Below, piece by piece: positions 1,544-27,716 of a stretch of DNA of 64,000 nucleotides. How positions within the stretch are numbered: the first letter of the stretch is position 1; the number at the start of each line of letters is the position of its first letter. The notes below the pieces were generated by a model. It searched no databases, was not told where the DNA came from, and saw only the letters and a program-made list of their open reading frames with translations. The position numbers and the translations under genes are program-made. Origin of the DNA: Gammaproteobacteria bacterium (lineage in GTDB: Bacteria; Pseudomonadota; Gammaproteobacteria; Arenicellales; Poriferihabitantaceae); contig VYFG01000145.1 of the NCBI GenBank assembly GCA_009842505.1, positions 7,151-71,150 of the forward strand. Reading direction: 5' to 3'.

Positions 1544-2929
1544 CTACCCGAGCGGCTTGATGAAAGGGAAGTGCCTTAAGATTTCCTCGTCCCGGTAGGC
1601 GGTGTTCCGGTCGCTGAGCCAGCCGTTGATGAATCGGATGTCCTCGTCACCCAGGTCACCGGTGGCCTTTTCCAGGCGCAGGAGCGAAAGGATGTAGTTG
1701 TACCGGGCCCGAAGGTAGTTCGTGCGGGACAAGGACAGGTCCCGCTGGGCGTCGAGCACGTCCAGGTTTGTGGTCAGGCCGGCGCTGAAGCCTTCCTCCT
1801 TGGCCTTGAGTGCACTTTCACCGGCCACGATGGCTTCCGCCAGCGCGATTACCTGGCTGATGCCGTTGGTGATCGCGAGAAAGGCGGTGGTGGTGGATGA
1901 CGTCGCGCTGCGGCGGGACGCTTCGAGAACCTGTTCCGCCTCGTTCTGGCGCAGACCCGCCTGCCGGGTTCTCAGGTCCACGGAACCGCCCAGGTACAGC
2001 GGCAGATTCAGGGTCACCCCGAGGCTGGTGCTGTTGGTCGCGCCGCCCCCGACACCGCTGCCGTTGTCGGCCCAGCGCTGGCTGGCCTCGAAAGCCACCG
2101 TGGGGCTTCGTCTCGCCCGTTGCCGGTCCACCTCGTGGCCGGCCAGCAGAAGGTTCAGTTCCTCCGACTTGACCTGGAGGTTGTTGGTTCGCGCAAGGTT
2201 TACCCAGTGATCGATATCGTCGGGCTCCGGCGGGTCCAGGGGGGAATCCTCCGACAGTTCGGAGATGGTCCGCGGGGTGATGTTGATGATCTCGATCAGC
2301 GCCTGGCGTGCATTGCTGATCTCGATGTCGGATGCGATCAGGTCGGCGTCCGCCTGCTGGAAACGCGCCCGGGCATCAAACAGGTCGGTACGGGTTCCAA
2401 GACCGACCTCGAGCCTTTCCTCCGCCAGGTCCATCTGCCGCTTGATGGCGATCTTCTGCAGCCGGGCCACCTCCTTGGCGTCCCGGGCGGCCAGGAGGTT
2501 GAAGTAACGCTCCGCCACCCGCAGGGTCAGGTCGTCCCTTGCGTTGTCGAACTGCAGGAGTGCCCGTTGCACCTCCAGTTCAGCCTGGCTGATCTGGATC
2601 CGTGTCGTCCGGTTCAGCAGCGGGAGGTTGAGGTTGACGCTGATCTCGTTATTGTCGCCGGTGGTTGTCGGGCCCCTGAAATCGCTGCGCTGTTTACCGA
2701 GTGTTCCCTTGCCGTTGACGGTGGGCTTGAATCCGGTCCGGGCCAGGGGAAGATTGAGCCGGGCGGCCTCGTAGCTTTCCTTGGCGGCGAGATAGATGGC
2801 GTCGCTTTCAAGCGCCAGCTGGTAGACGTCCCAGAGGTCTTCGCCGTTTGCAGTGTAACTGCCTGTCAGCATCATCGACAGCAGAATCCCCCGAAGAGTC
2901 GCAGGCACCGCGCCAGGTATTCTTTTCAT
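1544..2929 (-). CDS. tolC: TolC-family outer membrane channel
   Basis: 461 aa with a signal peptide. N-terminus DLWDVYQLALESDAIYLAAKESYEAARLNL and a repeated coiled-coil/beta architecture characteristic of TolC/type I secretion outer membrane proteins. Confidence 0.85.
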   Translation of the reverse strand: MKRIPGAVPATLRGILLSMMLTGSYTANGEDLWDVYQLALESDAIYLAAKESYEAARLNLPLARTGFKPTVNGKGTLGKQRSDFRGPTTTGDNNEISVNLNLPLLNRTTRIQISQAELEVQRALLQFDNARDDLTLRVAERYFNLLAARDAKEVARLQKIAIKRQMDLAEERLEVGLGTRTDLFDARARFQQADADLIASDIEISNARQALIEIINITPRTISELSEDSPLDPPEPDDIDHWVNLARTNNLQVKSEELNLLLAGHEVDRQRARRSPTVAFEASQRWADNGSGVGGGATNSTSLGVTLNLPLYLGGSVDLRTRQAGLRQNEAEQVLEASRRSATSSTTTAFLAITNGISQVIALAEAIVAGESALKAKEEGFSAGLTTNLDVLDAQRDLSLSRTNYLRARYNYILSLLRLEKATGDLGDEDIRFINGWLSDRNTAYRDEEILRHFPFIKPLG

Positions 2930-6220: not shown

Positions 6221-8620
6221 TCAGCTGCCCCGGGCGATGATGGCGGCCAGTCCGCTCTCGGTGGCGGAGGTGGCTTCCCGGACCGCTTCGGTCAACTCGT
6301 CGAAATCGGCCTGGTCGCAGGACCGGGCAAAGGTCATCCTGACCTTGTCTGGCATGGATTCGACCGGCGAGTCATTCTCCATGACCAGCTGCCGGATGCC
6401 GTACAGGTTCCGCCACATGCGGGCAGCCCCGGAAAGTTGCTCCGCAACTTCACGGGGAATCACTTCAAGCGCCTTGCCCGCCTGGAAAACGGAAGCAGCG
6501 TTGCTGGTAATCAGGCTTCCCGGCATCTCCGGCAGGTGGGTCAGCTGCAGCAGGCGTGCGGCGCGCTCGACATCACGGAGCCCCTGTTGCATGCTGGAGA
6601 TCAGCGATTGTTCGGTCCTGGTTTCATTGCCTGCCCCGTTGCGCAGCTCCCGGAGCAGCGCATCCCGTGTCGGGTCATCGGCCAGCAGGGAATATCGGGC
6701 ATCATCGAAACGTTGCCCGATACCGGGGTCTCCATGGGTAAAGATCCACCGTGCCCGGGTCAGGTCCAGCAGTTCGCTTGCCGAAGCGGTCCGGTGGTGT
6801 TCCACGAATTCGTCAAGCGCATAGACGCCGCGATCGCGGGCTTTCCCCGATGTCGGCTCGAACAGCAGGCTGGCCCGGGTCAGTATGCGAAGTGCCCCAT
6901 GAAACAGGCGGTACAGGGCCGCATGGCGATCAGCGGATCCGCCCTCGAAAACGAACATGATCTCGAGTGCGGCACGGGGCGCGACTTCCCGGCTGGCCAG
7001 ATCGCCGAAGATGACGGCGGCTATCCCGCCTTCGTCCGGGCGGGGATCACGGTCGGCAACATCTTCCACGACGGCCTGAAGAACTGCGTCGATCGAGGAT
7101 TCGGCGACATTGGCCAGTGCGATCCCGGCCTCGGTCGGCGTCAGGTTGCCGCGCAACGTATGCATGCCGATCTGGAACACCTTGTTGTTCGACCAGTCCC
7201 GAACCATCTCCGCGGCGTCGGCGGCATCCTTTACCGGTATTTCGGCGATCTGTTCCTTCATTTCCACGACACCGAACTCGTGGGTCCAGTAGACGCGCAC
7301 AAGTCCGCTGCGGGCAATCCTCTCAAATTCCGGGTCCGGTCCGAATCCTTCGGGCATCTCCAGATCGGTGAACTCCCTGTCCTTCAGGCTATCGAGCAGT
7401 TCCGGGTCCCTCTCGATTACCCTGACCAGGCGGGGAGCGGCGCCGTAAATCTCCATGATCGCGTCGAGTGCCTCCGGGCGTGCCTCGGAAACCGGGCTGT
7501 CGTAGGCGCTCCAGTCCTCGATTTCTGGGTAGAAGTGGGCCCGCCATTGATCCACCAGAGGGTCCATCGTCTCGAAGAAGCGCTTCGGGCGCAGGGCCAG
7601 GCCGAACATCGTGCCGTAGGTTCCCGGCAGCAGTGGAGATTCGTCTTCGCCGTGGTGCTGCAGCAGCGGGTAGCGCCTGCCCGCCGAGACATGGTGGTCG
7701 GGATGGCGTTGCATGTTGAAGAACATCCAGTTGCTGAACTTGTAGTCGGCGCCCCATGAATGCCGCAGGCTGACCCTTTCGAACCGGCCATTGGGCAGGC
7801 GTATCCGGCGCAGGCCGTAATGCTGGACGTAGTTGCTTATTTTCATCGAGAACACGATCCCGAGACACAGGAACATGAAGATCAGAACAGACCACCATCC
7901 CCCCAACGCATAGACGAACGCGTACCAGGCGGCGGTTTCAAGGCCGTACCGCCAAAACGGATTGCTGAAATGCCAGGTCGGCAACTGCCGATGCGCCATC
8001 CGTCCGCGTTCAACCTTCCAGGCCCCAAGGATGTTGCTTGCCAACTCGCGGGGGAAATACGTCCAGAAACTCTGTCCCTTGGGCGCGGAGCCCACGTCTT
8101 TCGGTGTGCCGACATAGGCATGATGGATATAGAAATGTTCCGTGGCGTAGTGCGGGTACGAAACGGAGGCAAGCAGGAATTCCCCGACGTACCGCTCCCA
8201 CGTCGTGCGCCGGTGAATCAGTTCGTGCCCGACGATGAACACTCCCTGACCTTCCACGCCCAGCACAATCGCCAGCAGCGCACCTTCCCAGGGAGCCAGG
8301 TGTCCGACCATGAAGATCTGCCATAGCGTGAACACGAATGCCGTCGGCCAGAGCAATGCCCAAAGCCATGCCGACAGGTTGTACCAGACCAGCCGGTGTT
8401 CCGGTGTCGCCCTGGGGTTCATGTTCCGCCCGTCCAGGCCGAAGGCAAGGTCCAGCGGGCCCGCGATCATGAAAAAGACGAACGGCCCGGCGATCCACCA
8501 GCCGCCGTACAGAGCGGCGGTGAAAATCAGGGGAAAGACCGCGAGGGGCAGGAAATGCGGAATGGCGTTCCGTAGTGATGGCTCAATCGCCCGATCTGTG
8601 GAAACTGCTACTGCAACCAT
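6221..8620 (-). CDS. Fusion protein: N-terminal AlkB-type membrane di-iron alkane 1-monooxygenase/desaturase domain plus C-terminal GlnE-like (adenylyltransferase-family) domain
   Basis: The N-terminal ~400 aa carry histidine boxes HELIHR, EHFYIHH, the NYVQHYGL signature and RHPDHH. The C-terminal ~400 aa resemble a GlnE repeat (LLFEPTSGKARDRG..., LDLTRARWIFTHGD, GLRDVERAARLLQLTH), but the nucleotidyltransferase G-S/DxD positions look degenerate (GDLASREV...LEIMFVF). SD GGAG lies 8 nt upstream of the ATG. Confidence 0.75.
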   Translation of the reverse strand: MVAVAVSTDRAIEPSLRNAIPHFLPLAVFPLIFTAALYGGWWIAGPFVFFMIAGPLDLAFGLDGRNMNPRATPEHRLVWYNLSAWLWALLWPTAFVFTLWQIFMVGHLAPWEGALLAIVLGVEGQGVFIVGHELIHRRTTWERYVGEFLLASVSYPHYATEHFYIHHAYVGTPKDVGSAPKGQSFWTYFPRELASNILGAWKVERGRMAHRQLPTWHFSNPFWRYGLETAAWYAFVYALGGWWSVLIFMFLCLGIVFSMKISNYVQHYGLRRIRLPNGRFERVSLRHSWGADYKFSNWMFFNMQRHPDHHVSAGRRYPLLQHHGEDESPLLPGTYGTMFGLALRPKRFFETMDPLVDQWRAHFYPEIEDWSAYDSPVSEARPEALDAIMEIYGAAPRLVRVIERDPELLDSLKDREFTDLEMPEGFGPDPEFERIARSGLVRVYWTHEFGVVEMKEQIAEIPVKDAADAAEMVRDWSNNKVFQIGMHTLRGNLTPTEAGIALANVAESSIDAVLQAVVEDVADRDPRPDEGGIAAVIFGDLASREVAPRAALEIMFVFEGGSADRHAALYRLFHGALRILTRASLLFEPTSGKARDRGVYALDEFVEHHRTASASELLDLTRARWIFTHGDPGIGQRFDDARYSLLADDPTRDALLRELRNGAGNETRTEQSLISSMQQGLRDVERAARLLQLTHLPEMPGSLITSNAASVFQAGKALEVIPREVAEQLSGAARMWRNLYGIRQLVMENDSPVESMPDKVRMTFARSCDQADFDELTEAVREATSATESGLAAIIARGS

Positions 8621-9477: not shown

Positions 9478-10752
9478 CTAGCAGCCAAGACCCCGGGACA
9501 TCTGGTCATAGCTGGTGAGGGGGACTGCGCACATCCGGTTCCAGTCCGCCTCGCCGATTTCCGGCTGGCGCATCAGTTCGAACATGCCGTCGAACTTGCT
9601 GAGTGCATCGCAGTCCACGGACTCGGGAGCCGCCGCCTTGCGGTGCCGTGGCCAGACGTGGTCACGGGCATGGCGCCAGAACCCGCTGTCGTATTTTGAG
9701 CCAAGGCAGTAGTGCCAGCCGACGAACAGGCCGTAACAGAGCATGTTGTTGACGAGGAACCGGTTGACAATCGGTGCGTCGCGTTCAATATGCTCGATTG
9801 GGCGGTTGAGACGCGTTTGGAGGACCATCCCGATCTGCAACTGGGCGGACACGATGGCCGTTGCCTCGAGGGGTTCCATGAAGGCCGCCGCGTTGCCGAT
9901 GCGGGCCACTGCGCCGTCGTACATATGCCGATGGACGAAATTGGGGAACTGGATGACGGCGCGCTGTTCGAACTCCGGTACGCCATCGGTTGCAAGGAAC
10001 GCATCGAAGTCCGACTCGACTTCGTCAAGGCCGGATACATCGCGGTTGAAGATGTACCCGTAGGATGTGTGTACTTGAAGCGGAATGACGAAAATCCAGC
10101 CGTGCGGGCGCGCAACCGCGCGGGTATAGGTGTGTTGCAGGACCGGTCCGTCCCGATCTTCCCCGAAGATTGCCGGGCAGCGGCGGATGACGGCCGTATT
10201 GGTGGGAATGAATGAAATGTCGATGTGCCGTTCGGGCTGGAGTTCCCTGGGAAATCCGCGGGCATCGAAGACCAGGTCGTAGCGTTCCGGCGCCAGGCCC
10301 TCGAATTCCACTTCCGCGCCGCCGTCCACTCTGGTGATCCCGAGCACTTTCGCGTCGATGTGGCGCGCGCGCGTGCTTTCGTACAGCAGGTCCCCCATCA
10401 GGTCGGCGGACAGGTGATAGGCGTAGGACTCCTTTACCGGCATGAAGTAGTGGGTGAAATCCTGGTCTCTCACCCCCCATCCCTCGAATGCGACCCCGTA
10501 CTTGCGGGTTCCTTTCAGGCGCTGCTGGACGGTATCGTGGGGCAGGTCCGTCAGGTGCTGCAACTGTTGGACCAGGCTCGGCCAGCTGCCTTCACCCACT
10601 CCGATTACCGGGATGCGCGAGTCATAGATGTGGTGCAGTTCGTAGTCCCGGCCGGAGAGAAGGCGAGTTATGCTGGCGGCCGCCAGGGACCCCGCGGTTC
10701 CGCGTCCCACAACCGCGATCTTCTGCAAGGATTTGCTGCCCGGATGGATCAC
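9478..10752 (-). CDS. Flavin-dependent (tryptophan-type) halogenase-like protein
   Basis: FAD fold VVGRGTAGS. IGVGEGSWPSL matches the GVGEATIP region. RKYGVAFEGW keeps the lysine that aligns with the catalytic Lys of PrnA/RebH-type enzymes. GWIFVIPL stands in place of WxWxIP (second Trp is Phe). FMEPLEATA stands in place of FxEPLESTG. GTG start. Confidence 0.7.
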   Translation of the reverse strand: MIHPGSKSLQKIAVVGRGTAGSLAAASITRLLSGRDYELHHIYDSRIPVIGVGEGSWPSLVQQLQHLTDLPHDTVQQRLKGTRKYGVAFEGWGVRDQDFTHYFMPVKESYAYHLSADLMGDLLYESTRARHIDAKVLGITRVDGGAEVEFEGLAPERYDLVFDARGFPRELQPERHIDISFIPTNTAVIRRCPAIFGEDRDGPVLQHTYTRAVARPHGWIFVIPLQVHTSYGYIFNRDVSGLDEVESDFDAFLATDGVPEFEQRAVIQFPNFVHRHMYDGAVARIGNAAAFMEPLEATAIVSAQLQIGMVLQTRLNRPIEHIERDAPIVNRFLVNNMLCYGLFVGWHYCLGSKYDSGFWRHARDHVWPRHRKAAAPESVDCDALSKFDGMFELMRQPEIGEADWNRMCAVPLTSYDQMSRGLGC

Positions 10753-11175: not shown

Positions 11176-11976
11176 TCAGCGCACGCGTCGCAGTGCCGGT
11201 TTGGTGAATTCGCTTACATCAAGCCCGGTGCGAAACTGGAAATCGGCCCATTGCAGCACCGTGCTCGCACCGGTCAGGTGGTTCACCATCGTTTGTTCTC
11301 CCGCCCGCCAGTACTGGTCCAGGTATTGCCGGTAGTTCTCGAACGTGAGCGTTTTCAGATGCGAGTCCTTTCGGTCGTAAAGCTCCATCTTCCAAGTCCG
11401 AAGCTCGCCGGTATCCTGCCAGACGATCTTGCGGCTGTATCCGGACTTCCTGTCCAGGGGTACCTGCTCAATCACCGTGCATGTGAGCGCCCCGCATGGC
11501 TCGTCGCGAAGATACCTGTAGGCATATTCTTCCACCTCCGAAGAGGTCATGTCCTCGTAGGAAAACTCGCTCCCCATGAATGACCCTGAACGTGACGAGG
11601 CGTTGATGCGCTTTACCCTTTTCAGGGCCGGCAGGTACAGCCACTGGTCGTCCTGTGTGTTGATGTGGGCGTGCGTCAGGAGGGCGGTTCCCTGCACGTC
11701 CCGTGGCTGGTCGAACACGAACAGGCTCCGGTCGCCATCTCCCTGCATCTCCAGCACCTTGAAGCGCATCTGGCGGACACTCTCCCGGCCCTGCCGGTCG
11801 CGCAGTAGCATCCGCATACCGGCGGTGTAATCCCCGAAGCCGTCGTTGCGGACGCTTGATTCACGCGCAATCCGAAGACCCTTGTCCTCCGGAGTTTCCT
11901 CTTCGGCAAGGGCATGTGTACCCGGCAGGCACAAGCATGACAGCGCCAGGGACAGGACGATGACCACGGAATTCAA
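11176..11976 (-). CDS. LolA-like outer membrane lipoprotein-sorting family protein (periplasmic partner typical of COG1033 RND exporters)
   Basis: Signal peptide NSVVIVLSLALSCLCLPGTHA, then LFVFDQPRDVQGTALL, WLYLPALKRVKRI and GSFMGSEFSYEDM, typical of the LolA-like family. The 482-aa track ORF runs antisense across the precursor gene, so I place the start at the TTG at 11976 (uncertain, within about 10 nt). Confidence 0.7.
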   Translation of the reverse strand: MNSVVIVLSLALSCLCLPGTHALAEEETPEDKGLRIARESSVRNDGFGDYTAGMRMLLRDRQGRESVRQMRFKVLEMQGDGDRSLFVFDQPRDVQGTALLTHAHINTQDDQWLYLPALKRVKRINASSRSGSFMGSEFSYEDMTSSEVEEYAYRYLRDEPCGALTCTVIEQVPLDRKSGYSRKIVWQDTGELRTWKMELYDRKDSHLKTLTFENYRQYLDQYWRAGEQTMVNHLTGASTVLQWADFQFRTGLDVSEFTKPALRRVR

Positions 11977-12266
11977 CGGGGCGCCCCGGTGGTGTGGGTA
12001 ACCCTGGATCCTGCTTTGGCAGACATACCTGCTTGCGTTGGTTTCGCGGTCAGGGAGCATCCGCACAGACTCCGTGGTGGACATGAAACATTGTACATTG
12101 GTACCCCGGAAAAGGTGAAGTTGCGGCCTTGCAGGAAATTCCAGACATGATACATTCCCTCTCGGATTCACGGCACTTTGCAGGTCATCCCCGGCACCGG
12201 AAGGGACACGCCACGGGAAATCGATTGCCGGCGCCGATGCACACAAGCCAAGCTTTTTCAGTGTTT

Positions 12267-12411: not shown

Positions 12412-12663
12412 ATGAGAAGTGGTGATGAAATGCTCAAGCAGATTGTTGAGAAGTCCGCCCTCGACACGGATTTCAGACAACAGTTGCGAGAAGATCCGAA
12501 GACTACGATCAGCAACGAACTGGGAATCACGATTCCCGATTCGATGAACATCATAATCCATGAGAGCGACATGCAGACGGTGCATCTCGCCCTGCCACCG
12601 GATCCGAACATTACCGAGGAGCAACTCGAGGCCATCTCAGCTGGTCTTTGCTGCTGCTGGTAA
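12412..12663 (+). CDS. NHLP (nitrile hydratase leader peptide) family RiPP precursor with a 5-residue core LCCCW
   Basis: 83 aa. The leader LKQIVEKSALDTDFRQQLREDPKTTISNELGITIPDSMNIIIHESDMQTVHLALPPDPNITEEQLEAISAG fits the NHLP pattern (...DxxFrxxLxxDPkxxl...G(i/v)x(l/i)P...hLvlPP...eeLEa(v/i)aGG). Only L-C-C-C-W (12646-12660) follows the A-G motif. It has a good SD and its own promoter and terminator. Confidence 0.85.
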   Translation: MRSGDEMLKQIVEKSALDTDFRQQLREDPKTTISNELGITIPDSMNIIIHESDMQTVHLALPPDPNITEEQLEAISAGLCCCW

Positions 12664-13907: not shown

Positions 13908-14142
13908 ATTTATGCCTCGGGACTGCAGGCGCGGAACCAGGGCTGGCTGCAGGGAACGGGAGCCCGGACAGCCCATGCCGATGGGCGCCGGACCTTCCGG
14001 GAACGGCGCATGGCCGGGATGATCACCCGCGCCCCAGGCATGCCGGCGCAGTGCCGGGTCCGGTCCTGCGCCCGGGGCTCCATGCCCCCGGCATCGGTGG
14101 TCGTGCGGTCATTTCCCGTTTTTGCTTGCGTGTCCAAGTCCT

Positions 14143-15444
14143 TCAGGCTTCCAGGGCCTCGACGAGACGCTCCAGGGCCTCGATGCAAAATGCGGTGGTC
14201 ACGGATTCAGAGCCGTGCCCGATCTGTCCGAACGCGCCCCATCTCAGCGATTGGTCGCCAAACGCGAGCAGTTCCGGCCAGCTGCCGTCTTCACGCTGGG
14301 AACCGATGATCCTTTCCACCTGACGTTTCACGTCGATACTTTCAAGGCGATCAATATTATAGAGTGCCGAGACCGCCTGTGCGGTCTGGAGGAGGTTGCC
14401 GAATTCCCCTTTCCCGCCGCCCAGGTCAAGGATTCGATCCGCAAGTATCGGCCGTAGACTGTCGAGAGCGGGTTCGGCGCACATCATGGCACGGGTTGTT
14501 GCATAGTAGATCGTGACCGTGTCGGGATACCATTTGGACGAGTCCTTGAGCCGGTCTTCAATGATCAGGGCCTCCAGCCATCGTTGGGCGTCCCTGGTTT
14601 CGGGGTGGTCGCCGAGGTAGGCGATGACATTCGCATTGACCACAGGATCGGCTTCGATACGGAAGCTGGACACGACATCGGGTTCGTCTTCCTCCAACAT
14701 CCAGGTCTTGAAACAGCCGTTGTCGTCGCGGTTCGCCAGTATTCGCGGGACATTCCTTCCCAGAAAGACCCAGGGGTGGGACCCGATGACAAGCGAACAG
14801 ACGGTGGTGCTGTCTAGATCCTGGGGAAGGTGGCGGTAGTAGCGCCACAATCCGGGATACTCGATGGTGCTGACGAGATACTTCCTGGTGGCGTCGCACA
14901 GGGCCCTGGCCCGGGCCTCATCGCTGCTTTCCAGGGCAAGCACGCAAAGGGCCGAAATGAACGGAGGCTTTTCGAAATGTCGCGGAATGTCCGGATCGGC
15001 GATATTGAACCTGATGCAGTGCCAGGCCCCGGATTCGTCGACCACGGATTCCAGGAAGGCCAGGCCACGGAGGATGCTTTCCCTGCCCTTTTTGGCAAGT
15101 GCTTTCGGGGTGGCGGCGTGCTTGCGGGCGCGCACCCGTTCGGGAGCGGGCGGGCGCATGGGCGGTGCCGGGTCGTGGAGTGTCCTGCGAAGAAACTCCA
15201 GTGACGTTGCGCCGGCTTTCGCCTCCTTCCGCTCGGCCTCGCTGTATTTGCTGTGCGGCGGGATCACCAAGTGCGTGGCGGAATAGGTTTCTTCGTGCAC
15301 GTGTATCTCATGGTCTTCGTCCAGGGTAACCCCGAAATCCCTTGCGATCGTTTCCTTTGGATTCATGACAAGGCGTGCGCGAAAGTCGCTGTCCTCGGCG
15401 GCTCTTGAAGCAATGCGATCGGTTGCGTCAGCAGGTTTCTTCAT
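14143..15444 (-). CDS. NHLP-type leader (aa 1-78, ending KEAKAG) fused to a ~355-aa prenyltransferase/squalene-cyclase-repeat (alpha/alpha-toroid) domain
   Basis: Residues 1-78 align without gaps to the 78-aa leader of the 12412 precursor, with 24/78 identities by hand count (DxDFR, L, PK, TI, G.T, HE, HL..PP, terminal AG). The downstream domain has QW-type repeats: ERIIGSQREDGSW (canonical), FLESVVDESGAW, ILANRDDNGCF and ILDLGGGKGEF. Confidence 0.8.
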   Translation of the reverse strand: MKKPADATDRIASRAAEDSDFRARLVMNPKETIARDFGVTLDEDHEIHVHEETYSATHLVIPPHSKYSEAERKEAKAGATSLEFLRRTLHDPAPPMRPPAPERVRARKHAATPKALAKKGRESILRGLAFLESVVDESGAWHCIRFNIADPDIPRHFEKPPFISALCVLALESSDEARARALCDATRKYLVSTIEYPGLWRYYRHLPQDLDSTTVCSLVIGSHPWVFLGRNVPRILANRDDNGCFKTWMLEEDEPDVVSSFRIEADPVVNANVIAYLGDHPETRDAQRWLEALIIEDRLKDSSKWYPDTVTIYYATTRAMMCAEPALDSLRPILADRILDLGGGKGEFGNLLQTAQAVSALYNIDRLESIDVKRQVERIIGSQREDGSWPELLAFGDQSLRWGAFGQIGHGSESVTTAFCIEALERLVEALEA

Positions 15445-15537: not shown

Positions 15538-18483
15538 TCAGGCGACCTGTCTCTTGACCAGTTCTTTGAATACCCCGTCGACCTCCATGAGTTCGTCGAA
15601 GGAGCCGCTCTGTACGACTCTTCCGGCCTGCAGCACGTAGATGCGATCGGCCTGTTCCAGCGTGGACAGACGGTGGGCGATGACGATCCGGGTGGCAGTC
15701 AGGGTCGTGAGGTTCCGCATTACCTTGGCCTGGTTTTCGTTGTCCAGCCAGTTGGTTGCCTCGTCGAACAGCATGATTCGGGGGTTGCCGATCACCGATC
15801 GGGCGATTGTGACGCGCTGGCTCTCGCCGCCCGACAGGACAGAACCGCTGGCGCCGACCATGGTCATCATGCCCATGGGCATGCCCCTGATCTCGTCCTC
15901 GACTTCGGCGACCCGGGTGGCGGTCCATACTTCCTCGTTCTCCACTCCATCGTGGTGACTGACCAGGTTGTCCCAGAGGTCCTGGGGATGGAGCCCCACC
16001 GATTGTGGCACTGTGCCGATTTTCCGACGCACCTGTCTCAGATTCAGGTGCCTGAGGTCACGCCCGTCGTAATACACCGCACCGGCGGTTGGCCGGTCAA
16101 TTCCAAGTGCAAGCCGGAACAGGGTGCTCTTGCCGGCACCTGATTCGCCGGCAATTGCGATGAATTCACCGGGGCGGGCGCGGATCGTGACCCCGTCGAG
16201 AATCAGCGGTCCGTCGGGATCGTAGCGGAAGGAAATGTGGTCGAACAGGATGTCGCCGCCCAGATATTCAACCGGTTCTCCTTCGATCTCGGCCTCGGGA
16301 ACCGCGGTGAGCAGCGGGCGCATCTGGTCGAACGCCGGCAGCATGGCGGCAACGGTGCCCAAGGACTCGCCGAGCCGGGCGATGGCGGTCTGGAATACGA
16401 TGAAGACCGTGTAGACTACAAGAAAATCGCCGACCGGGACGTTCCGGTCGCCCACCGACATCACCGCAAAAAGCAGTACTCCGGCGGCGAGAAAGGGGAG
16501 CGCGGCGCCAAATGCCCGGGAATGCCCCTCGAGTGCGCCCAGTTCGAGTTCCGCGCGTTTCTGCTCGCGGTAGCCCCGGGCCCAGATGGCGAAAGCCGAC
16601 CCTTCCGCATTTTCCACGCGCAGTTTGGTGATCCCGCCCACGATCTGGAACAGCTGGCCGGCTACGCGGCGTGTCGCACTGATCATCCGCCCATACGGTG
16701 AGATCTGGCTCCATCCGATGACCGCGGTGATCAGCAGAGAAGCCAGGCTGAAGGCGAGGGCGATGCTCCCGAGGGTGGCATCGTAGAAGAAGATGATACC
16801 AAAGGACGGGAGCAGGAAAATGATCGACAGGAAGCTGTCGGCGACGACCCCCTGCAGACCGTCGCGAAGATTCTGGAAGGTCATTCCCGACATGGCCAGG
16901 TCGCCTGCCGGTTGGCGGTGCAGGATGCTCGGAGGAAGACGCATGAGGCGGTCCCAGAAGGCGGCCTCGACCCGTGACGCCGCGCGCCCCTCGAGCCGCA
17001 TCATTGCAGTGCCCTGAAGCAGATGCAGCAGGGCGCCGAGCACGCCGAGACCCGCCAGCGCCACGGCCATGGCATAGAGCGCCTCGACGTTTCCGCCCGC
17101 AGTGGCTTCATGCGCAACAAAGCCGAGCGCAAGTGCCGGCAGGAGCTTGATCAGGCCGCCCGGAAGCCCGGCAATCACAAGCCGTAGCAGATCCGCGGCC
17201 GATCCATGCAGGGCGATTTTCAGCAGGTCTGCCGGTTTCACGTTCCCCGACGGTAATGGCCGGTAGAACATCCAGGCTTCCTCCCCAAGCGCGCTGGCGC
17301 GATCCGCTGAGATCCGCGCGCTGCGCTTGGTGGCCGGGTCGTATTCCCGATAGCGCCCGAACATTCCCGGCAGCAACGCCACCGGCCGCCCGTCTTCCGG
17401 GCGGAATACCAGCATCGCGTTGCTGTCCCCACGCCACCAGGTTCCCTCGGCCTTGAAACGCACGCGTCGGGCGCGTACGCCCGAGGCATCGAGAACGTCC
17501 ACGAGGCCGATCGGAATATCGGCAGGTCCCGTGCGCGCCGGGATCCGGAAATCGATTCCTTCATGGCGGCCGATGATCCGCAGAGCATCTTCCAGGGCCG
17601 TGTCCTCGACACTGGCTTCCCGGTCAATGGGCTGATCATAGATATTGAAAAGCCGTTGCCTGGCAACCCTCTCGGCCGTGCGGCGGCTGGTTGTCCGCGC
17701 GCGCTCGAGATTCACGTCATCGACCACGGCCAGGCGGCGGTTTAGGCGTTCCAGGGTAAAGGCGACCGCGTGGAAGGTGGCGAGCGCCGGCAGCAGCGTG
17801 CCTTGCTGCGCCAATGTTTCGGTAGACTGGCCCGTCAGTGTCGTCTCTTCGAACAGGGTGATCCAGTTGGTCCGTGTCAGCGGGAGCATGGTTTCGCCTG
17901 CACCGCCGGCCTCGGCAAGTTCCGCCTGGTCGACGATATCCATGAACAGGACTGCGCCGTGCGACGGTTTGCTGACCCATACCACGCGGTGCCGTGTGGA
18001 CAGCGTGCAGGAGGGAGAAAGGGTTTGCGCCAGACCGGGTTCGGCCAGGGCTGTCGGACGCGGAAGGGGGCTCGCAAAGCGCGACAACGTGCCGGTGATG
18101 GCGTTCAGCCAAGTGTCGGCCTGCTCCGCCAGTTCCGCCGGATCGGCCTGGGACAGCAGGGACGCCGGCAGCCGTTTCAGCATTGTGCCCGGCATTCCCT
18201 TGGCCATCAGGCTGAGCGTAGTGTCCTGGCCATCGTCCCGTACGTCCGGGGCAACGCCAGGAAGCAACCAGCCCGAATCGCGGCGCAGCAGATGCTGTGG
18301 TGCCGCCTGTTCCACCCCGTCCTTGAATTCGATCAGGAACAGGTTGACGGCACCCTGATCGATGAACCAGACGCTGTCGGGATCGTCGAGCCTGACCGGC
18401 AGATTGCCGGCACAGGGCACGGCTGTGCCGGAGCGTGCGGCGAGCTCTGCGATGGATATGTATTGCGGCCCGGTGTCCTTCAT
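15538..18483 (-). CDS. NHLM-type bacteriocin ABC transporter, ATP-binding/permease protein with a long N-terminal cNMP-binding-like extension
   Basis: 981 aa. Walker A GESGAGKST, signature LSGGESQRV, Walker B IMLFDEATNWLD, six-TM ABC exporter core. The N-terminal ~330 aa have no peptidase Cys motif. Its start overlaps the upstream PCAT stop by 1 nt. Confidence 0.85.
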   Translation of the reverse strand: MKDTGPQYISIAELAARSGTAVPCAGNLPVRLDDPDSVWFIDQGAVNLFLIEFKDGVEQAAPQHLLRRDSGWLLPGVAPDVRDDGQDTTLSLMAKGMPGTMLKRLPASLLSQADPAELAEQADTWLNAITGTLSRFASPLPRPTALAEPGLAQTLSPSCTLSTRHRVVWVSKPSHGAVLFMDIVDQAELAEAGGAGETMLPLTRTNWITLFEETTLTGQSTETLAQQGTLLPALATFHAVAFTLERLNRRLAVVDDVNLERARTTSRRTAERVARQRLFNIYDQPIDREASVEDTALEDALRIIGRHEGIDFRIPARTGPADIPIGLVDVLDASGVRARRVRFKAEGTWWRGDSNAMLVFRPEDGRPVALLPGMFGRYREYDPATKRSARISADRASALGEEAWMFYRPLPSGNVKPADLLKIALHGSAADLLRLVIAGLPGGLIKLLPALALGFVAHEATAGGNVEALYAMAVALAGLGVLGALLHLLQGTAMMRLEGRAASRVEAAFWDRLMRLPPSILHRQPAGDLAMSGMTFQNLRDGLQGVVADSFLSIIFLLPSFGIIFFYDATLGSIALAFSLASLLITAVIGWSQISPYGRMISATRRVAGQLFQIVGGITKLRVENAEGSAFAIWARGYREQKRAELELGALEGHSRAFGAALPFLAAGVLLFAVMSVGDRNVPVGDFLVVYTVFIVFQTAIARLGESLGTVAAMLPAFDQMRPLLTAVPEAEIEGEPVEYLGGDILFDHISFRYDPDGPLILDGVTIRARPGEFIAIAGESGAGKSTLFRLALGIDRPTAGAVYYDGRDLRHLNLRQVRRKIGTVPQSVGLHPQDLWDNLVSHHDGVENEEVWTATRVAEVEDEIRGMPMGMMTMVGASGSVLSGGESQRVTIARSVIGNPRIMLFDEATNWLDNENQAKVMRNLTTLTATRIVIAHRLSTLEQADRIYVLQAGRVVQSGSFDELMEVDGVFKELVKRQVA

Positions 18484-20687
18484 CAGCCCGACTTGACCAG
18501 CTTGTAGTACGTGCCTTCCCGGTCCGCAATCAGCTCGGCATGCGTGCCGCGCTGCACCGTGACGCCCTTATGGAGTACGATGATTTCATCGCAATCCCGC
18601 ACGGTGCTCAGCCGGTGAGCCACGATCAGGCAGGTGACGCCGCGCCGCCGAAGGGCATCATCAACGAATTCCTCGGTTGCGGCATCGAGGGCGCTGGTCG
18701 CCTCGTCCAGGATGAGCACCGTCGGATGGCCCACCAGCGCGCGGGCGATTTCCAGCCGTTGCCGCTGGCCGCCGCTGAAATTCGCCCCGCCCTCTTCGAC
18801 CAGGGTCGCATATCCTTGCGGCCGGATCAGGATTTCGTCATGGATCTGGGCATCCCGCGTCGCGGTGAAAATGGCTTCATCCGGAATGGCCGGGTTCCAC
18901 AGGGTGATATTGTCGCGTACTGACGCGGAAAAGAGCACGACCTCCTGATCCACCATGGAAATGGACTGCCGCAGCACTTCCTCGGGAATCTCATCCCGCA
19001 GATGGCCATCAAACAGGATTTCCCCCGACCAGGGTTGATAGACACCCGATACCAGGCGCGCCAGAGTCGACTTGCCGGAGCCGCTGGAACCGACCACGGC
19101 AACCCGCTGTCCCGGCCTGATCACGAGGCTGAAGTCCTTGATCAGGGGTGGGCGGCTCTTGTTGAAACCGAAGGTGACATTGCGTAGTTCGAGCTGGCCT
19201 GCCAGCTGGAGCCGGCCGTTGAACGTGGGAATTGAGTCCGATTCCGGACTCCGGCGATTGAAAACCGGGTCTTCGGCGGCCTTGGAGATGTCATCGACCC
19301 GCTGCAGGTCGGTTTCGAGCGCCTGGCGCTTGTCGGCGAATTCCAGAAAGTGCCCGATGGGCGTCAGGAACAGTTCTGCCAGGATATAGAAGCCCACCAG
19401 CGTTCCCAGGGTCATTTGCCCGGTCATGACCATGCCGCCCCCGATGCCGAGGATCGCCGCGCTGCGAAGTACGGCAATCAGGCCCGGGAGCGCGGTGTTG
19501 ACGGAGCCCAGTTCGGAATAGGCCTGGCGAGCCTGCAGTTCGCGCGCCTGCTGGCCACTCCAGCGCGAAAAAAACCGGTCATCCGCTCCCGTCATGCGCA
19601 GGTTGTCCGCATGGTTCAGCATCTGCATGCCGAGACCGATCAGCAATCCCTGTTCGCGCCTCATCGTCTGGCTTCGGACCGCCCGGTGGGCGTTAAGAAA
19701 GTGGGCCAGGATGCCGTGCAAAAGCGCCAGCAGCAGCACAATCAGCGTCAGCAGGATATCGTACGCAAGCATCGCGATGAGCAACACCACACTCATGGCC
19801 ATGTCGATCATGAGCACCAGGAACTGGTCCGTCAGATTCTTCGCGATTCTGTCAATGGACGAGACCCGGTCGGTCAGGTCGCCGGCCAGCCTGTGCTCGA
19901 AAAACTCCACCGGCAACCGCAACAGGCGCGACAGGCCACGGTTGTGGCCGGTCACCGAAATCCGGATTGCTAGACGCTTCAGGAACCGGTGCTTGAGCAG
20001 GGACAGGATGTATACCAGAACACCGCCGCACAGCAGGGCTGCCACCAGTCCGCCCCAGGGCCCATGGTTTTGCAGGACATCGTCCACGAAAACACTGAGG
20101 GATGCGGGGACGAGGAGTGCCAGCAACGTCAACATGAGCCCGCAGGCGATCACTCCGGCAAGCACATTCCATGATCCGCCGAGCAGGGTGCCCAGTTGAC
20201 TGAACAGGCCGGGTTGCTCGCCGCCGGGCTTGAAATCGGCGCTGAGCTTGAACCGTAGTGCAATGCCGCTGTAGCCCTTGTTGAACTCTTCAACGGAAAG
20301 CCTGCGTCGTCCCGTGGACGGGTCATTGAGATGGTAGTTACGACCGTCGAATCCCTCAAGGACGACGAAATGGCTGAATTGCCAGAACAGTATCAGGGGC
20401 AGTTCCAGCTTTTGCAGTTGCTCGGCACGCACGCTGAGTCCATTGCATTCGAGGCCATAGTGTCTCGAGGCGCGCAGGATGCTTGCGGCACTGCTACCGT
20501 CCCGGCTCACCTCGCATTTTTCGCGCAATTCGGTAAGCGGCACCCAGCGCCCGAAGTAGGCCAGTATGATGCCCAGGCAGGCTGCGCCACATTCCGACGC
20601 GTGCATCTGTAACAGGACCGGGGTGACTACCCTCCGTTTCCGGGAGTCTGTGGCGGCCTTGCCAGCAGCCCCTTTTGAGGCGACCAT
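18483..20687 (-). CDS. Peptidase C39-containing ABC transporter (PCAT) of an NHLP/NHLM system
   Basis: 734 aa. The N-terminal C39 domain has an intact catalytic set (QMHASECGAACLG Cys, SHFVVLEG His, LNDP Asp). Walker A GSSGSGKST, signature FSGGQRQRL, Walker B LILDEATSALD. Confidence 0.9.
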   Translation of the reverse strand: MVASKGAAGKAATDSRKRRVVTPVLLQMHASECGAACLGIILAYFGRWVPLTELREKCEVSRDGSSAASILRASRHYGLECNGLSVRAEQLQKLELPLILFWQFSHFVVLEGFDGRNYHLNDPSTGRRRLSVEEFNKGYSGIALRFKLSADFKPGGEQPGLFSQLGTLLGGSWNVLAGVIACGLMLTLLALLVPASLSVFVDDVLQNHGPWGGLVAALLCGGVLVYILSLLKHRFLKRLAIRISVTGHNRGLSRLLRLPVEFFEHRLAGDLTDRVSSIDRIAKNLTDQFLVLMIDMAMSVVLLIAMLAYDILLTLIVLLLALLHGILAHFLNAHRAVRSQTMRREQGLLIGLGMQMLNHADNLRMTGADDRFFSRWSGQQARELQARQAYSELGSVNTALPGLIAVLRSAAILGIGGGMVMTGQMTLGTLVGFYILAELFLTPIGHFLEFADKRQALETDLQRVDDISKAAEDPVFNRRSPESDSIPTFNGRLQLAGQLELRNVTFGFNKSRPPLIKDFSLVIRPGQRVAVVGSSGSGKSTLARLVSGVYQPWSGEILFDGHLRDEIPEEVLRQSISMVDQEVVLFSASVRDNITLWNPAIPDEAIFTATRDAQIHDEILIRPQGYATLVEEGGANFSGGQRQRLEIARALVGHPTVLILDEATSALDAATEEFVDDALRRRGVTCLIVAHRLSTVRDCDEIIVLHKGVTVQRGTHAELIADREGTYYKLVKSG

Positions 20688-20688
20688 C

Positions 20689-21252
20689 TTACGATTGCTT
20701 CATTCGGAACAATGCAATCGGTGATTGCCTGCCAAGTTCGAGGAAGATCCGGCACTCCCTGTCCGCAAGGGAAGTCAGGTCGTGGCTTTCATCGAGCGTG
20801 ACGACGATGCGGTGGACGGACACCGGCACCGCGGTCTCAAGCGCCGCCAGCCTCCCGTGCAGGGGCACGGCGGTAATGTCCGCGACCTCTCCGTCAAGCG
20901 TGTCTGCCTCTCCGTCCGCCATATCCAGCTCTATCACCGCCGGTATCCCGGCCTTGATTTGCGGCGCGATGTCGCTCTTGATCCAGACGAGGGCCTGCAA
21001 GGACCGGTTTCCCTCGGGCAGGCTTTCGCCGGGCTCGACCAGCACGCCGTCCAGCGCAAGGCTGCGGGGCACGTTGCCATAGAAGAACCAGGTCCCGAGG
21101 ATGAGCAGCGTCACGGCGATCGCGGCGACCAGCAGACGCTCCCGGGGCGTGGAGATTGTCAGCAGCCGGTCGAGTTGTTCACGTTCCTCCTTTGCCTCGG
21201 CAACCGTATTGTGAAATGAATCAAATGGATTATTGAACACGACTGCGGGCAA
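20689..21252 (-). CDS. Short HlyD-family-like periplasmic adaptor (secretion protein of the NHLP exporter)
   Basis: 187 aa. Cytoplasmic N-terminus, one TM helix (LLVAAIAVTLLILGTWFFY), then a barrel-sandwich-like segment (GVLVEPG...IKAGIPAVIELD...GEVADI). No long coiled-coil hairpin. There is a 1-nt gap to the PCAT start. The start codon is uncertain: TTG at 21252 directly abuts the SD GAGGAGG, and a GTG lies 12 nt downstream. Confidence 0.6.
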   Translation of the reverse strand: MPAVVFNNPFDSFHNTVAEAKEEREQLDRLLTISTPRERLLVAAIAVTLLILGTWFFYGNVPRSLALDGVLVEPGESLPEGNRSLQALVWIKSDIAPQIKAGIPAVIELDMADGEADTLDGEVADITAVPLHGRLAALETAVPVSVHRIVVTLDESHDLTSLADRECRIFLELGRQSPIALFRMKQS

Positions 21253-21596: not shown

Positions 21597-23936
21597 TCAG
21601 GATGCCGGCCCGTCCCGCCTGGTTGGGCCCCGGTCCACCACCGTCAGCAGCGCCGGCAGGAGCGTCAGGTCGGCAATGAACGCAAAGGCAATGATCATCG
21701 CGGTCAGCACTCCAACCTGCGCGGTGGGAACGAACGGGGAAAACACGAAGATCAAGAAGCCGGCCACCAGCACCACCGTCGTTGTGAAAAGGGCCCGGCC
21801 GGCCGTGTCAAAGGCGTAATGCACCGCTGCCTCGGTATCCTGGCCGAATTCGCGCCGCGCACGGCGGTACTTGCTGAGAAAGTGCACCGTATCGTCCACG
21901 ACGATGCCCACGGTCATGGCAACCACCACGGATAACGAGAGGCCCACCTGTCCCACCGTCAACCCCCAGACGCCGAAGCCCAGCGCAGCGGGAACCAGAT
22001 TGGGGATGATGCTGATCAGGCCCAGCCGCAGTGACCGCAGGGCGAACAGGAGAATGGCGGAAATGGCCAGGAGCACGACCAGAGTCCCGACCAGCATGGC
22101 GCGGATGTTGCGCTGTCCGATGTAGGCGAACAGTGCTGCGGGACCGGTGCTGTTGACGTCGGCGACATGGGCCGCGTTGTCCTTCAGCCAGGCCTCGGCA
22201 CGCGCGTTCAGTTCAAGCACCTCCTGTGTATCCAGCGTTTCCGCCGAAATCGACACGCGCGTGGCCGATCTGGACCTGTCGATCTGGTTGTTCAGGTTCA
22301 GGCCCTGGGGAAGCGAAAGTTCGTACAACAGAAGGTATTGTGCCGCCAGGTCCTTGCTTTCCGGAATCCGGTAGGCGGTTGGGTCGTCACCGTGCATGCT
22401 CTTGTTGAGTTGGCGAAAGGTATCGGTGATGACCGCCACGTGGCGTACGGGGGGCTGTTCACGGTACCAGTCGGCGAATTTCGAGACGTCGGCAAGGAAC
22501 AGGGGGTCGGTGACACCGCCCTCGGCAGTTGCTTCCAGCGAGTATTCGAGCAGGGTGTTGCCGCTCAGGTGTTCGTCCATGAAATCCGTATCCTGCCGGA
22601 ACTCGACGCTCTCATCGAAGAAATGAACCAGGACGTCATTCAGCTCGTTGCGCGGAATGGCCAGAATCACGAGGGGTACGATCAGAATCCATCCCCACAG
22701 GATCGCCTTTCTGTAGCGCAGCACGGAATCTGCCAGGCGAACCATGGCGGTTCCGCCGAATCGGCGTTCCTCCGTGGCACGAATCGGGAGAAGCGAAAGC
22801 AGGGCCGGAAGAAAGGTGACGGAGAGGATGAAGGAGGTGGCGATGCCGAAAGCGACGAAATTACCGAGATGGCGATAGGGCGGCACCTCGGAGAAGTTCA
22901 TGCTCAGGAATCCAAGCGTCGTCGTGAGGCTCGCCAAGAATACCGGGTACAGATTCAGGCTGACGGATTCAACGATGGCATCGTGTCTGTTATACCCGGC
23001 ACGCAGACACTGCTGCAGGGCCACCAGCAGGTGCACGCAGTTCGCCACGACAATCATCAGCACGATGGTGGGTGCCGGCGAGATGGGCGGGGAAAAGGGC
23101 AGCCCGGCCCACATGCCAAGGCCCAGTGACGCGAGAATGGAAAAGACGATGACCATTCCGGTTGCCGCCACCCCCGCCCAACCCCTGGTGAGGACGCCGA
23201 GGATCAGAGCCATGAGCAGCAGGCTTGCGGGCAAGAAGATCTTCTGACTGTCGATCGATGCTTCCAGGAAGGTCTGGTTGATCATGACCGTGCCGACGAT
23301 ACGGAGGTCTACGCCGGGAAACCGTTCTTCCGCCTCCGCGGCGACGGACCTGGCGAACCCGGCAATTTCGGCCACGGCTTCCAGCAGGCCCTCCTCCGGC
23401 AGTTCGACAGTGACGCTTACAACGCTGACATCCCCGTTCAGGGAGAGCATGCTGCCGGCGATACGGGGGTCGGACGAAGCGACATCGCGGATTCGGGACC
23501 GCGCCTCAGGTTGGGCCAGTTCCTGCGGATCAACAAGATCCCGCACATACAGATCGTCACCGTCTGCGGTTGTGTATTGAAAATTGGCGAGCGAGTCGAC
23601 GCGTCTCGAGTAGGGTGTATGCCAGGCGGATTCCGTGAGCCAGGCGGCGGCCGACAGTGCGCTTTGCGATGTGGCGTCACCATCGTCCGGAATCACCAGG
23701 AAAACGATGTTTTCGTTCTTCCCGTAGGTGTTCTCCAGCGCTTCCAGCGCCAGAAGTTGCGGGTTGTCATCGTCGAAGAAGATGCGGTAGTTGGCGGAGA
23801 ATTCGAGCCGGGCAATACCGCTTGATGCGACCGCTACCAGGAACAGCGTGGCAAGGATGACCCGCCAGCGGGCCGCGAGCACCCTTTCGGCAAACCGTTT
23901 TGCGAATGGCTCTTTTGTTATGCCGTTTTTTTCCAC
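21597..23936 (-). CDS. RND-superfamily exporter, MMPL/COG1033 (HpnN-like) type
   Basis: 779 aa with two 6-TM bundles separated by large periplasmic loops. N-terminus RWRVILATLFLVAVASSGIARLEFSANYRIFFDDDNPQL is typical of COG1033 exporters. Confidence 0.85.
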   Translation of the reverse strand: MEKNGITKEPFAKRFAERVLAARWRVILATLFLVAVASSGIARLEFSANYRIFFDDDNPQLLALEALENTYGKNENIVFLVIPDDGDATSQSALSAAAWLTESAWHTPYSRRVDSLANFQYTTADGDDLYVRDLVDPQELAQPEARSRIRDVASSDPRIAGSMLSLNGDVSVVSVTVELPEEGLLEAVAEIAGFARSVAAEAEERFPGVDLRIVGTVMINQTFLEASIDSQKIFLPASLLLMALILGVLTRGWAGVAATGMVIVFSILASLGLGMWAGLPFSPPISPAPTIVLMIVVANCVHLLVALQQCLRAGYNRHDAIVESVSLNLYPVFLASLTTTLGFLSMNFSEVPPYRHLGNFVAFGIATSFILSVTFLPALLSLLPIRATEERRFGGTAMVRLADSVLRYRKAILWGWILIVPLVILAIPRNELNDVLVHFFDESVEFRQDTDFMDEHLSGNTLLEYSLEATAEGGVTDPLFLADVSKFADWYREQPPVRHVAVITDTFRQLNKSMHGDDPTAYRIPESKDLAAQYLLLYELSLPQGLNLNNQIDRSRSATRVSISAETLDTQEVLELNARAEAWLKDNAAHVADVNSTGPAALFAYIGQRNIRAMLVGTLVVLLAISAILLFALRSLRLGLISIIPNLVPAALGFGVWGLTVGQVGLSLSVVVAMTVGIVVDDTVHFLSKYRRARREFGQDTEAAVHYAFDTAGRALFTTTVVLVAGFLIFVFSPFVPTAQVGVLTAMIIAFAFIADLTLLPALLTVVDRGPTRRDGPAS

Positions 23937-27677: not shown

Positions 27678-27716
27678 ACCAGGGGAGCACATGCACAATC
27701 CGTCAGGTATCCGGAC

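Follow-up and report, generated by a model that had tools for sequence, protein, structure and literature searches.

A proteusin leader-like domain fused to a class II terpene cyclase-like barrel in the srp clusters of sponge symbionts, a candidate half of a split prenyltransferase-cyclase pair

Maturases that combine a prenyltransferase with a terpene cyclase (PC enzymes) were reported in 2024 for ribosomally made, post-translationally modified peptides (RiPPs), according to a 2026 review (PMC13290415) that cites Hubrich et al. (Chem 2024). As described there, NctPC consists of an ABBA-barrel prenyltransferase domain and an MstE-like cyclase domain, geranylgeranylates a Trp of its RiPP substrate and then cyclises the chain; ChrPC is analogous, but its transferase has another fold. 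PalQ attaches a prenyl group to the C-terminal Trp of an NHLP precursor (PMC10853753). NHLP-type precursors are also found in the 'srp' proteusin clusters of sponge bacteria, where SrpC turns three Cys residues into thiazolines and the C-terminal Trp is brominated by SrpI (PMC10858898, PMC10286304, bioRxiv 10.1101/2023.06.09.544420). The srp precursor genes were among the most highly transcribed RiPP genes in one metatranscriptome study, and a 2025 survey observed that LCCC clusters still hold 'several genes of unknown function' (PMC11832590). The present analysis concerns one such gene in a 64,000-nucleotide stretch of contig VYFG01000145.1 (hereafter the window), an open reading frame at 14143..15444 on the minus strand, stop codon included, encoding a 433-aa protein in which an NHLP-type leader domain is fused to a class II terpene cyclase-like domain. 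The identical protein (P0001) is present in public metagenome-assembled genomes (MAGs).

The cluster in the window is the known sponge srp proteusin biosynthetic gene cluster (BGC), with its LCCCW precursor SrpE, YcaO protein SrpC and brominase SrpI; the original srp cluster paper is reportedly that of Nguyen et al. (JACS 2021). No role for the 433-aa protein or for the adjacent 372-aa protein (P372) was found in the srp literature, the accessible part of which covers thiazoline formation and bromination only. On the minus strand the genes run in the order HlyD-like, C39 peptidase-containing ATP-binding transporter (PCAT), ABC2, the 433-aa gene and P372. A first-pass annotation made from the sequence alone had placed the gene directly downstream of the C39 PCAT; it adjoins the peptidase-less ABC2 gene (15538-18483), and the PCAT gene (18483-20687) lies one gene further up. 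The same annotation had offered three roles for the protein: exported cargo, a maturase carrying a leader-like domain, or a binding, carrier or immunity protein. The second of these fits best, given a conserved candidate catalytic Asp and Tyr, an ABBA-like neighbour and fused relatives. The reading preferred here, to which we assign a probability of roughly 0.6 on the basis of sequence, structural models and analogy, is that the 433-aa protein is an srp-pathway maturase and supplies the cyclase (C) part of a prenyltransferase-cyclase pair split between two genes. It is drawn from a cyclase-like barrel, an ABBA-like P372, relatives in which the two are fused and the precedents of NctPC and PalQ, and it is this assignment that favours a maturase over an export cargo.

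Residues 1-78 of the protein align without gaps to SrpE (12412..12663, plus strand), an 83-aa precursor composed of an NHLP leader and a core, LCCCW, that is the published srp precursor core. BLASTP yielded 24/78 identical and 42/78 positive positions (E 3e-14), exactly the number of identities counted by hand in the first-pass annotation. SrpE matched TIGR03793 over the full model length, to position 77, with 64.5 bits, above the curated cut-off. The leader match expected for the 433-aa protein was significant (residues 6-66, model positions 4-63/77, E 1.1e-11), although at 44.4 bits it fell below the cut-off of 50.9 and left the positions of the cleavage region unmatched; a relative, P0340, passes the cut-off with 54.1 bits. 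The homology to the nitrile hydratase alpha subunit that marks the NHLP family was found in residues 18-71, which matched Pfam NHase_alpha (PF02979) with 28.5 bits against a gathering score of 27.2. Within the family, TIGR03793 matched (E <= 1e-3) 37/37 fused members and 0/44 leaderless relatives. On this sequence evidence the N-terminal ~95 residues are a true NHLP leader homologue that has kept the folded leader nucleus and lost the L(X)4L/cleavage-region motif.

In the AlphaFold2 model, built with 81 homologues (mean predicted local distance difference test score (pLDDT) 83, predicted TM-score (pTM) 0.79), three helices make up the N-terminal unit, the junction is ill defined, and an alpha/alpha barrel is modelled with confidence from residue ~113 onwards. 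In the structured leader domain (residues 1-66; 15247..15444, minus strand), helices are predicted at residues 7-17, 19-27 and 29-37 and the strands of a beta-hairpin at 48-51 and 57-60. No short modifiable core follows the leader in this protein, its place being taken by a 355-aa linker and enzyme domain. A lost stop codon or gene-calling artefact was rejected as the origin of the fusion, the ~433-aa architecture recurring in 159 protein clusters, from which homologues of ~420-460 aa were aligned over their full length, and in 80 species-representative genomes. The fused leader domain is nearer to the precursors of sister clusters (42-47% identity to a precursor whose core is YY) than to its own SrpE (31%), which suggests, at the level of sequence, that a precursor gene became fused to the cyclase gene long ago and that re-purposing followed. 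In RefSeq and UniRef some fusion proteins of 429-433 aa (P0073, P0087) are named 'nitrile hydratase subunit alpha', probably a mis-annotation caused by the NHLP domain, and the RefSeq records concerned are flagged here as a database error.

The remainder of the protein, residues 116-433 (14146..15099, minus strand), is modelled as a single-domain alpha/alpha barrel resembling the TC-beta domain of class II terpene cyclases. Foldseek matches in the PDB were class II terpene cyclases throughout ranks 1-30; the best was the TC-beta domain of the drimenol synthase AsDMS (E 3e-11, query TM-score (TMq) 0.58), and further matches included the small myxobacterial cyclases 8PAK/8PAJ, 6IJ1, MstE, SsDMS and squalene-hopene cyclase (SHC), with oxidosqualene cyclase (OSC) lower down. 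Searching PDB sequences with the family profile led to the same set of class II cyclases, sequence identity to MstE and AsDMS TC-beta being 16-19%. The architecture proposed in the first-pass annotation, an NHLP leader joined to a toroid of the terpene cyclase/prenyltransferase type, was right, and the toroid is specifically class II terpene cyclase-like. Of the two Pfam families named there for this half, squalene-cyclase repeats were matched, beyond the leader the only matches in Pfam and NCBIfam and all sub-threshold, and Prenyltrans (PF00432) was not. Four QW/PFTB-type repeats had been counted. One is canonical (IIGSQREDGSW, residues 379-389; 14278..14310, minus strand), being the best stretch against the QW repeats of SHC, with Q383, G387 and W389 invariant; the other three are degenerate and 'four' was generous.

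Two other barrel enzymes were considered and rejected. A protein prenyltransferase beta subunit of the CaaX farnesyltransferase/geranylgeranyltransferase (FTase/GGTase) type is discounted by the missing PF00432 match and by the position of the RabGGTase beta subunit at Foldseek rank 43 (E 3e-3, TMq 0.25); no gene for a protein prenyltransferase alpha subunit was found in the cluster. The lanthionine cyclase LanC was absent from the Pfam and NCBIfam matches and from the 50 best Foldseek matches listed. The idea that the C-terminal CCCW of SrpE might serve as a CaaX-like S-prenylation signal for a toroid resembling a protein farnesyltransferase was abandoned, given a barrel of the cyclase type and Cys residues that YcaO is known to modify.

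The candidate general-acid motif (DxD[S/D]T) is D209-L-D211-S-T-T (14803..14820, minus strand), which aligns to DLDTT of AsDMS. D211 was invariant in 81 fused and leaderless sequences. The motif takes the form DLDS[T/S] in 37/37 fused proteins; among the 44 leaderless relatives, 33 have Asp at position 212, in most cases within the SHC-like D[LV]DDT[A/S]. A candidate partner of the catalytic Asp is Tyr306 (14527..14529, minus strand), likewise invariant in the 81 sequences. It aligns to the Tyr of AsDMS RYYP, which is Y427 under a chain-index offset of 10, the offset having been taken from the position of DLD. D331, D333 and Y427 are the catalytic residues of AsDMS, whose TC-beta cyclisation is Mg2+-independent (PMC12365925). 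A set of aromatic residues assigned to the pocket was also invariant across the fused and leaderless sequences. Since the acid motif is conserved and D211, Tyr306 and the aromatic residues do not vary, sequence and model point to a functional protonation-type cyclase and not to a binding module. The third role proposed earlier, a non-catalytic carrier or immunity protein that binds prenyl groups or lipids, has in its favour that alpha/alpha barrels can be binding modules and that relatives give weak Pfam matches to TED and cobalamin-binding domains; set against these invariant residues, and against the transferase-fold domain fused to the barrel in some relatives, it is highly improbable.

The proposed partner, P372 (12789..13907, minus strand), is annotated as 'hypothetical'. 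It had no match in Pfam or NCBIfam, and a PDB profile search with the P372 family returned nothing even at E 10. Its AlphaFold2 model (pLDDT 82.7) resembles aromatic prenyltransferases: the 50 best Foldseek matches were all of the ABBA type, EpzP, AmbP3, CloQ, NphB, TleC, DMATS enzymes and PatF among them (E ~1e-5). In its 120 best sequence matches, from sponge-symbiont MAGs named Gammaproteobacteria and Rhodospirillaceae, P372 is 76-100% identical. Over its whole length it also aligns to the N-terminal half of P0224 (E 3e-12), with weaker alignments to P0237 and P0219. In all three of these proteins the C-terminal half is a member of the barrel family, so that the P372 and barrel families are linked by gene fusion. 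P0177, a fusion protein whose N-terminal half is Trp_DMAT-like, showed no similarity to P372 in BLASTP; this fusion uses a different transferase subtype. Two features expected of a RiPP PC system are found at this locus: an ABBA-fold protein adjacent to the barrel protein, with P0224, P0237 and P0219 as fused relatives, and a Trp-bearing precursor (SrpE, LCCCW) in the same cluster.

A HMMER search with residues 95-433 recovered 815 representative proteins. Many are stand-alone barrels of 300-340 aa with 30-45% identity, and in some proteins, of 580-790 aa, the barrel occupies one of the two halves, as a rule the C-terminal one. Leaderless orthologues of 310-340 aa (40-45% identical), without a signal sequence of any kind, occur together with one or two P372 paralogues in other clusters with NHLP precursor, PCAT, ABC2 and HlyD-like genes, where the precursor cores are SSWNCSCRTC or only YY. 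In one such cluster (locus L011) the NHLP precursor at 5910-6179 on the minus strand has just 'YY' after ...SASGA, and its neighbours are two cytochromes P450, two P372 paralogues, a leaderless barrel protein and a PCAT/ABC2 pair. In another (L009) the precursor at 9599-9889 on the minus strand, with the core SSWNCSCRTC, adjoins a leaderless barrel protein and a P372 paralogue; beside it is a conserved 339-aa protein, likewise encoded at L010.

Database matches to the 433-aa protein number more than 1,100. The best 120 among those listed mostly show full-length identities of 72-100% and point by name to Gammaproteobacteria, 'Deltaproteobacteria' and Gemmatimonadota; the same 433-aa protein occurs in sponge-symbiont MAGs, for example GCA_009837765.1. 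A scan of one genome per species located 80 loci with 68-96% identity, all in MAGs with sponge-type bin names, from Gamma- and Alphaproteobacteria, Binatia, Desulfobacterota-type bacteria, Gemmatimonadota, Acidobacteriota, Nitrospirota and Nitrospinota. The fusion is thus conserved at a minimum of 68% identity over at least 8 phylum-level lineages.

These loci were scanned with the proteins of the window, and partners within 10 kb of the fusion gene were counted at the 52 loci with full 10-kb flanks. P372 was present at 51/52, YcaO at 50/52, SrpE at 47/52, the desaturase-GlnE protein at 44/52 and the halogenase at 42/52; PCAT, ABC2 and the HlyD-like protein were each present at 38/52, and MMPL at 23/52. 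A recurrent operon order is fusion gene, desaturase, YcaO, P372. Among all the scanned loci, 61 had a SrpE copy; its core ended in W at 61/61 of them and was LCCCW at 59/61. The fusion gene is a core biosynthetic component whose tie to the maturases is closer than that to the exporter, as P372 and YcaO both exceed PCAT in its vicinity. Two copies of the fusion gene were observed ~2 Mb apart in one genome (L043 and L044, both on contig CBDBZU010000004.1), each with its own desaturase, YcaO, P372 and SrpE genes and with an exporter near one copy only. At L002 a DDE transposase gene (13464-14979) stands between the precursor and LolA-like genes of an otherwise near-identical cluster, and the MMPL gene is in fragments.

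These counts bear on the possibility that the protein is itself exported, with the NHLP domain as a real secretion leader, C39 cutting after Gly78 and the barrel acting or binding lipid in the periplasm or outside the cell. The fusion gene abuts the ABC2/PCAT genes in the window and an exporter is nearby at most of the loci counted; yet at 14/52 no PCAT lies within 10 kb, while P372 and YcaO are nearly always there. The sister NHLP clusters, moreover, hold orthologues with neither leader nor signal sequence. A cyclisation as free of Mg2+ as that of AsDMS TC-beta means that such an enzyme could in principle act extracellularly, but the prenyl-diphosphate-dependent step and the leader-bearing substrate would both be cytoplasmic. 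To our knowledge, a folded barrel of 355 aa is also far larger than any known PCAT cargo and an unlikely one.

The junction between the two domains bears on the same question. In an alignment of 160 fused sequences, the window protein and 159 homologues, residues 61-97 (15154..15264, minus strand; LPPRSK[LF]SEAEREEAR[TA]G-A[AT]SLEFLRKT[LM]HDPAPPxR) formed the most conserved stretch. Mean column entropy was 0.65 for residues 61-95, 0.70 for the barrel and 2.05 for residues 96-115; residues 98-115 (15100..15153, minus strand) form a variable Pro/Ala/Arg-rich linker with low pLDDT. E71, R72, S81, L85, P92 and A93 were invariant. In the gapless alignment to SrpE, G78-A79 (15208..15213, minus strand; G78 in 159/160) is equivalent to the A-G|L leader/core junction of the precursor, and this co-linear, conserved A/T-G-A site speaks for export. 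The NHLP cleavage-region motif (model positions 64-77, comprising L(X)4L and a site of the Gly-Gly type) was not matched in the 433-aa protein, and is counted as missing because the TIGR03793 match always ends at position 63/77. In L(X)4L the two Leu are the residues bound by SrpI, and the motif is recognised by C39 domains as well. Double-glycine substrates of C39 and PCAT proteins carry a GG/GA/AG site and hydrophobic residues at -4, -7 and -12, those at -4/-7 being used by C39 domains. The fused proteins read [LFY]-S-E-A-E-R-x-x-A-x-[TA]-G: [TA]-G is present, but relative to G78 they have Ala at -4, the invariant Arg72 at -7 and L/F/Y at -12, where SrpE has I, L and I. With leaderless orthologues, a lost cleavage motif and tighter linkage to the maturases, the export cargo proposed in the first-pass annotation is disfavoured, and we consider it unlikely.

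Alternatively, the leader copy might be a cleavable pro-domain that C39 or another protease removes inside the cell, switching the cyclase on or off without export. G78 and the following ASLEFLRKTLHDPAPP segment are near-invariant, and the low pLDDT of the junction gives it an apparently flexible character. The motif arguments against export apply here equally, a binding epitope would explain just as well why the residues before and after G78 are so conserved, and we know of no precedent. This makes the pro-domain quite improbable.

One related locus departs from the usual neighbourhood. L012 (10001-21308) encodes a 51%-identical fusion protein that passes the NHLP cut-off, followed by genes for a CrtI/HpnE-like flavin oxidase, an HlyD-like protein, a PCAT, an ABC2, an MMPL and a CMAS-type methyltransferase. 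It is the best evidence for two of the rival readings. For the export cargo it provides a fusion and an exporter with no small precursor. The other is that the cyclase acts on a free isoprenoid lipid, the leader domain serving only to target it to the exporter/MMPL machinery and P372 having a different role. Besides the gene content of L012, the nearest structures speak for a free lipid, AsDMS and SsDMS acting on farnesyl diphosphate itself, as do the MMPL with its sterol-sensing region and the LolA-like protein encoded in the window. The tight co-occurrence of the fusion gene with SrpE, YcaO and P372 argues otherwise, as do the existence of P372-barrel fusions, the leaderless orthologues within NHLP precursor clusters, and the published PC maturases, which act on peptides. 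A free lipid substrate is accordingly judged rather unlikely.

Several observations weigh against a split maturase pair. No small NHLP precursor, P372 or YcaO gene was found within 10 kb at L012. G78-A79 and its flanks are extremely conserved, which is also compatible with a processing site. The TM-scores of P372 in its Foldseek matches are moderate (0.45-0.56), and the alignment behind its model is shallow, all sequences being at least 76% identical. No gene for a polyprenyl-diphosphate synthase was seen in the cluster, and the assumed prenyl donor and acceptor atom, and even the role of the peptide as acceptor, are inferences.

If the 433-aa protein is the cyclase half of such a pair, fold, motif and context suggest the following pathway. 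The YcaO protein cyclodehydrates SrpE, a leader followed by LCCCW, and the Trp is brominated, as published. P372 would then attach a polyprenyl chain, most plausibly on the C-terminal Trp. Asp211, aided by Tyr306, would protonate the terminal double bond, and the barrel would cyclise the chain in the manner of MstE and the C domain of NctPC. Finally, the C39 PCAT/ABC2/HlyD-like/TolC system would cut the leader after A-G and export the lipidated product, perhaps aided by the MMPL and LolA-like proteins. The srp product is accordingly predicted, by analogy, to bear a cyclised isoprenoid besides its thiazolines and bromine.

The leader-like domain would in this pathway be a permanent, uncleaved docking or activation module and not an export signal. 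As a docking module it may keep the cyclase in the maturation complex, for instance on a leader-binding surface of P372, YcaO or the exporter; alternatively, it may supply a 'leader in cis' to the cyclase. That the NHLP domain serves in nature as a 'leader in cis', holding the cyclase in the maturation complex or activating it without the leader of the substrate, is put forward tentatively, as a possibility with the odds against it. Such a domain might occupy the leader-binding site on the cyclase, the prenyltransferase, YcaO or the exporter, or might pair with the leader nucleus of SrpE.

The exporter genes of the window extend over 15538..21252 on the minus strand (HlyD-like 20689-21252; C39 PCAT 18483-20687; ABC2 15538-18483). 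TIGR03796 scored 855.6 bits, above its cut-off, TIGR03797 scored 662 bits, below its cut-off of 709, and TIGR03794 was weak. TIGR03797 spans only residues 295-980 of ABC2; residues 1-294 match no Pfam family, and this N-terminal extension of 294 residues is a candidate leader-binding module. The SrpC-type cyclodehydratase, a fused E1-like/YcaO protein, is encoded at 3778..6078 on the minus strand (Pfam YcaO E 1e-96; TIGR03882, TIGR03604), and the SrpI-type flavin-dependent tryptophan halogenase, identified from Pfam Trp_halogenase (E 3e-42) and the literature, at 9478..10752, also minus. Between them, at 6221..8620 (minus strand), Pfam identified a 799-aa fusion of a membrane fatty-acid-desaturase-like and a GlnE-like region, kept in the operon. 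Its GlnE-like region is of the adenylyltransferase type, and across srp loci the gene usually comes directly after the fusion gene. The MMPL/RND transporter with a sterol-sensing-type region lies at 21597..23936 on the minus strand (Pfam MMPL and Sterol-sensing, matched on the identical gene at L001), the LolA-like protein of the outer-membrane lipoprotein-sorting type at 11176..12060 on the minus strand (Pfam LolA_like E 8.5e-59), and a TolC-type outer-membrane efflux protein at the cluster edge, 1544..2929 on the minus strand (Pfam OEP E 4e-61). A PhdYeFM/VapC (PIN) toxin-antitoxin pair (8772-9421, plus strand) sits within the cluster between the desaturase and halogenase genes and also occurs at L001-L003. 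Genes for a 4'-phosphopantetheinyl transferase and a DegT-type aminotransferase (26868-28829, plus strand) were observed just past the threonine dehydratase gene that flanks the cluster.

A full-text search turned up no paper connecting a terpene cyclase or geranylgeranyl with proteusins, sponges or LCCCW, and no published description of a leader-domain fusion on a maturase was found, the two most relevant primary papers lying outside the scope of these searches. The earlier remark that no characterised example was known needs qualification: the srp BGC has been published and the NctPC/ChrPC maturases were reported in 2024, and it is for the leader-domain fusion itself that the remark holds. 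The cluster and the enzyme class are thus already known, and what appears to be new is the natural fusion of a leader domain and the assignment of a prenyltransferase/cyclase pair to the srp pathway. The srp clusters span many sponge bacterial phyla. Assigning the two conserved 'hypothetical' genes to such a pair gives a concrete, testable prediction of a peptide-terpenoid hybrid; should the 'leader in cis' reading be true, these clusters would make a brominated thiazoline peptide with a cyclised terpenoid. In RiPP biosynthesis it would be an unusual form of enzyme-substrate encounter for a maturase to bear, in degenerate form, the leader of its own substrate, with a possible use in engineering leader-independent peptide lipidation and cyclisation.

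Among described systems, the cluster in the window is an srp cluster, with an 83-aa NHLP precursor ending in LCCCW, SrpC, SrpI, NHLP-type transporters and a distribution over many sponge-symbiont phyla. Like NHLP leaders (TIGR03793; Haft et al. 2010, PMC2887384), the 433-aa protein has a folded leader nucleus, homologous to theirs, and co-occurs with the same three transporter components; it differs in having a 355-aa enzyme instead of a short core, an unmatched motif 2 (the cleavage region) and a score below the curated cut-off. With MstE (6SBB) and AsDMS TC-beta (9M7D/9MHS) it has in common a single alpha/alpha barrel and the acid motif DxD(T/D/S)T, Tyr306 being a candidate counterpart of the AsDMS Tyr partner. 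AsDMS carries a HAD phosphatase in the same chain, MstE is a stand-alone protein, and neither has a leader-like domain or a place in a RiPP cluster, as the barrel does here. Compared by their description in the review, NctPC and ChrPC likewise pair an MstE-like single-domain cyclase with a prenyltransferase, of the ABBA type in NctPC, and act on Trp-containing RiPP precursors that include proteusin/NHLP types; the barrel family, too, includes proteins of 650-700 aa with a transferase-like N-terminal half and a C-terminal barrel. On the same comparison, P and C are separate genes in the srp cluster and the cyclase carries an NHLP leader-like domain.

The covalent joining of a leader to a maturase has a parallel among engineered enzymes, since fusion of leaders to LctM or LynD makes these enzymes leader-independent. 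Those fusions are artificial, whereas the one described here is natural, ancient and conserved, with an activating role as a candidate function; should the 'leader in cis' reading be true, it would be the first example in nature to parallel such engineered fusions.

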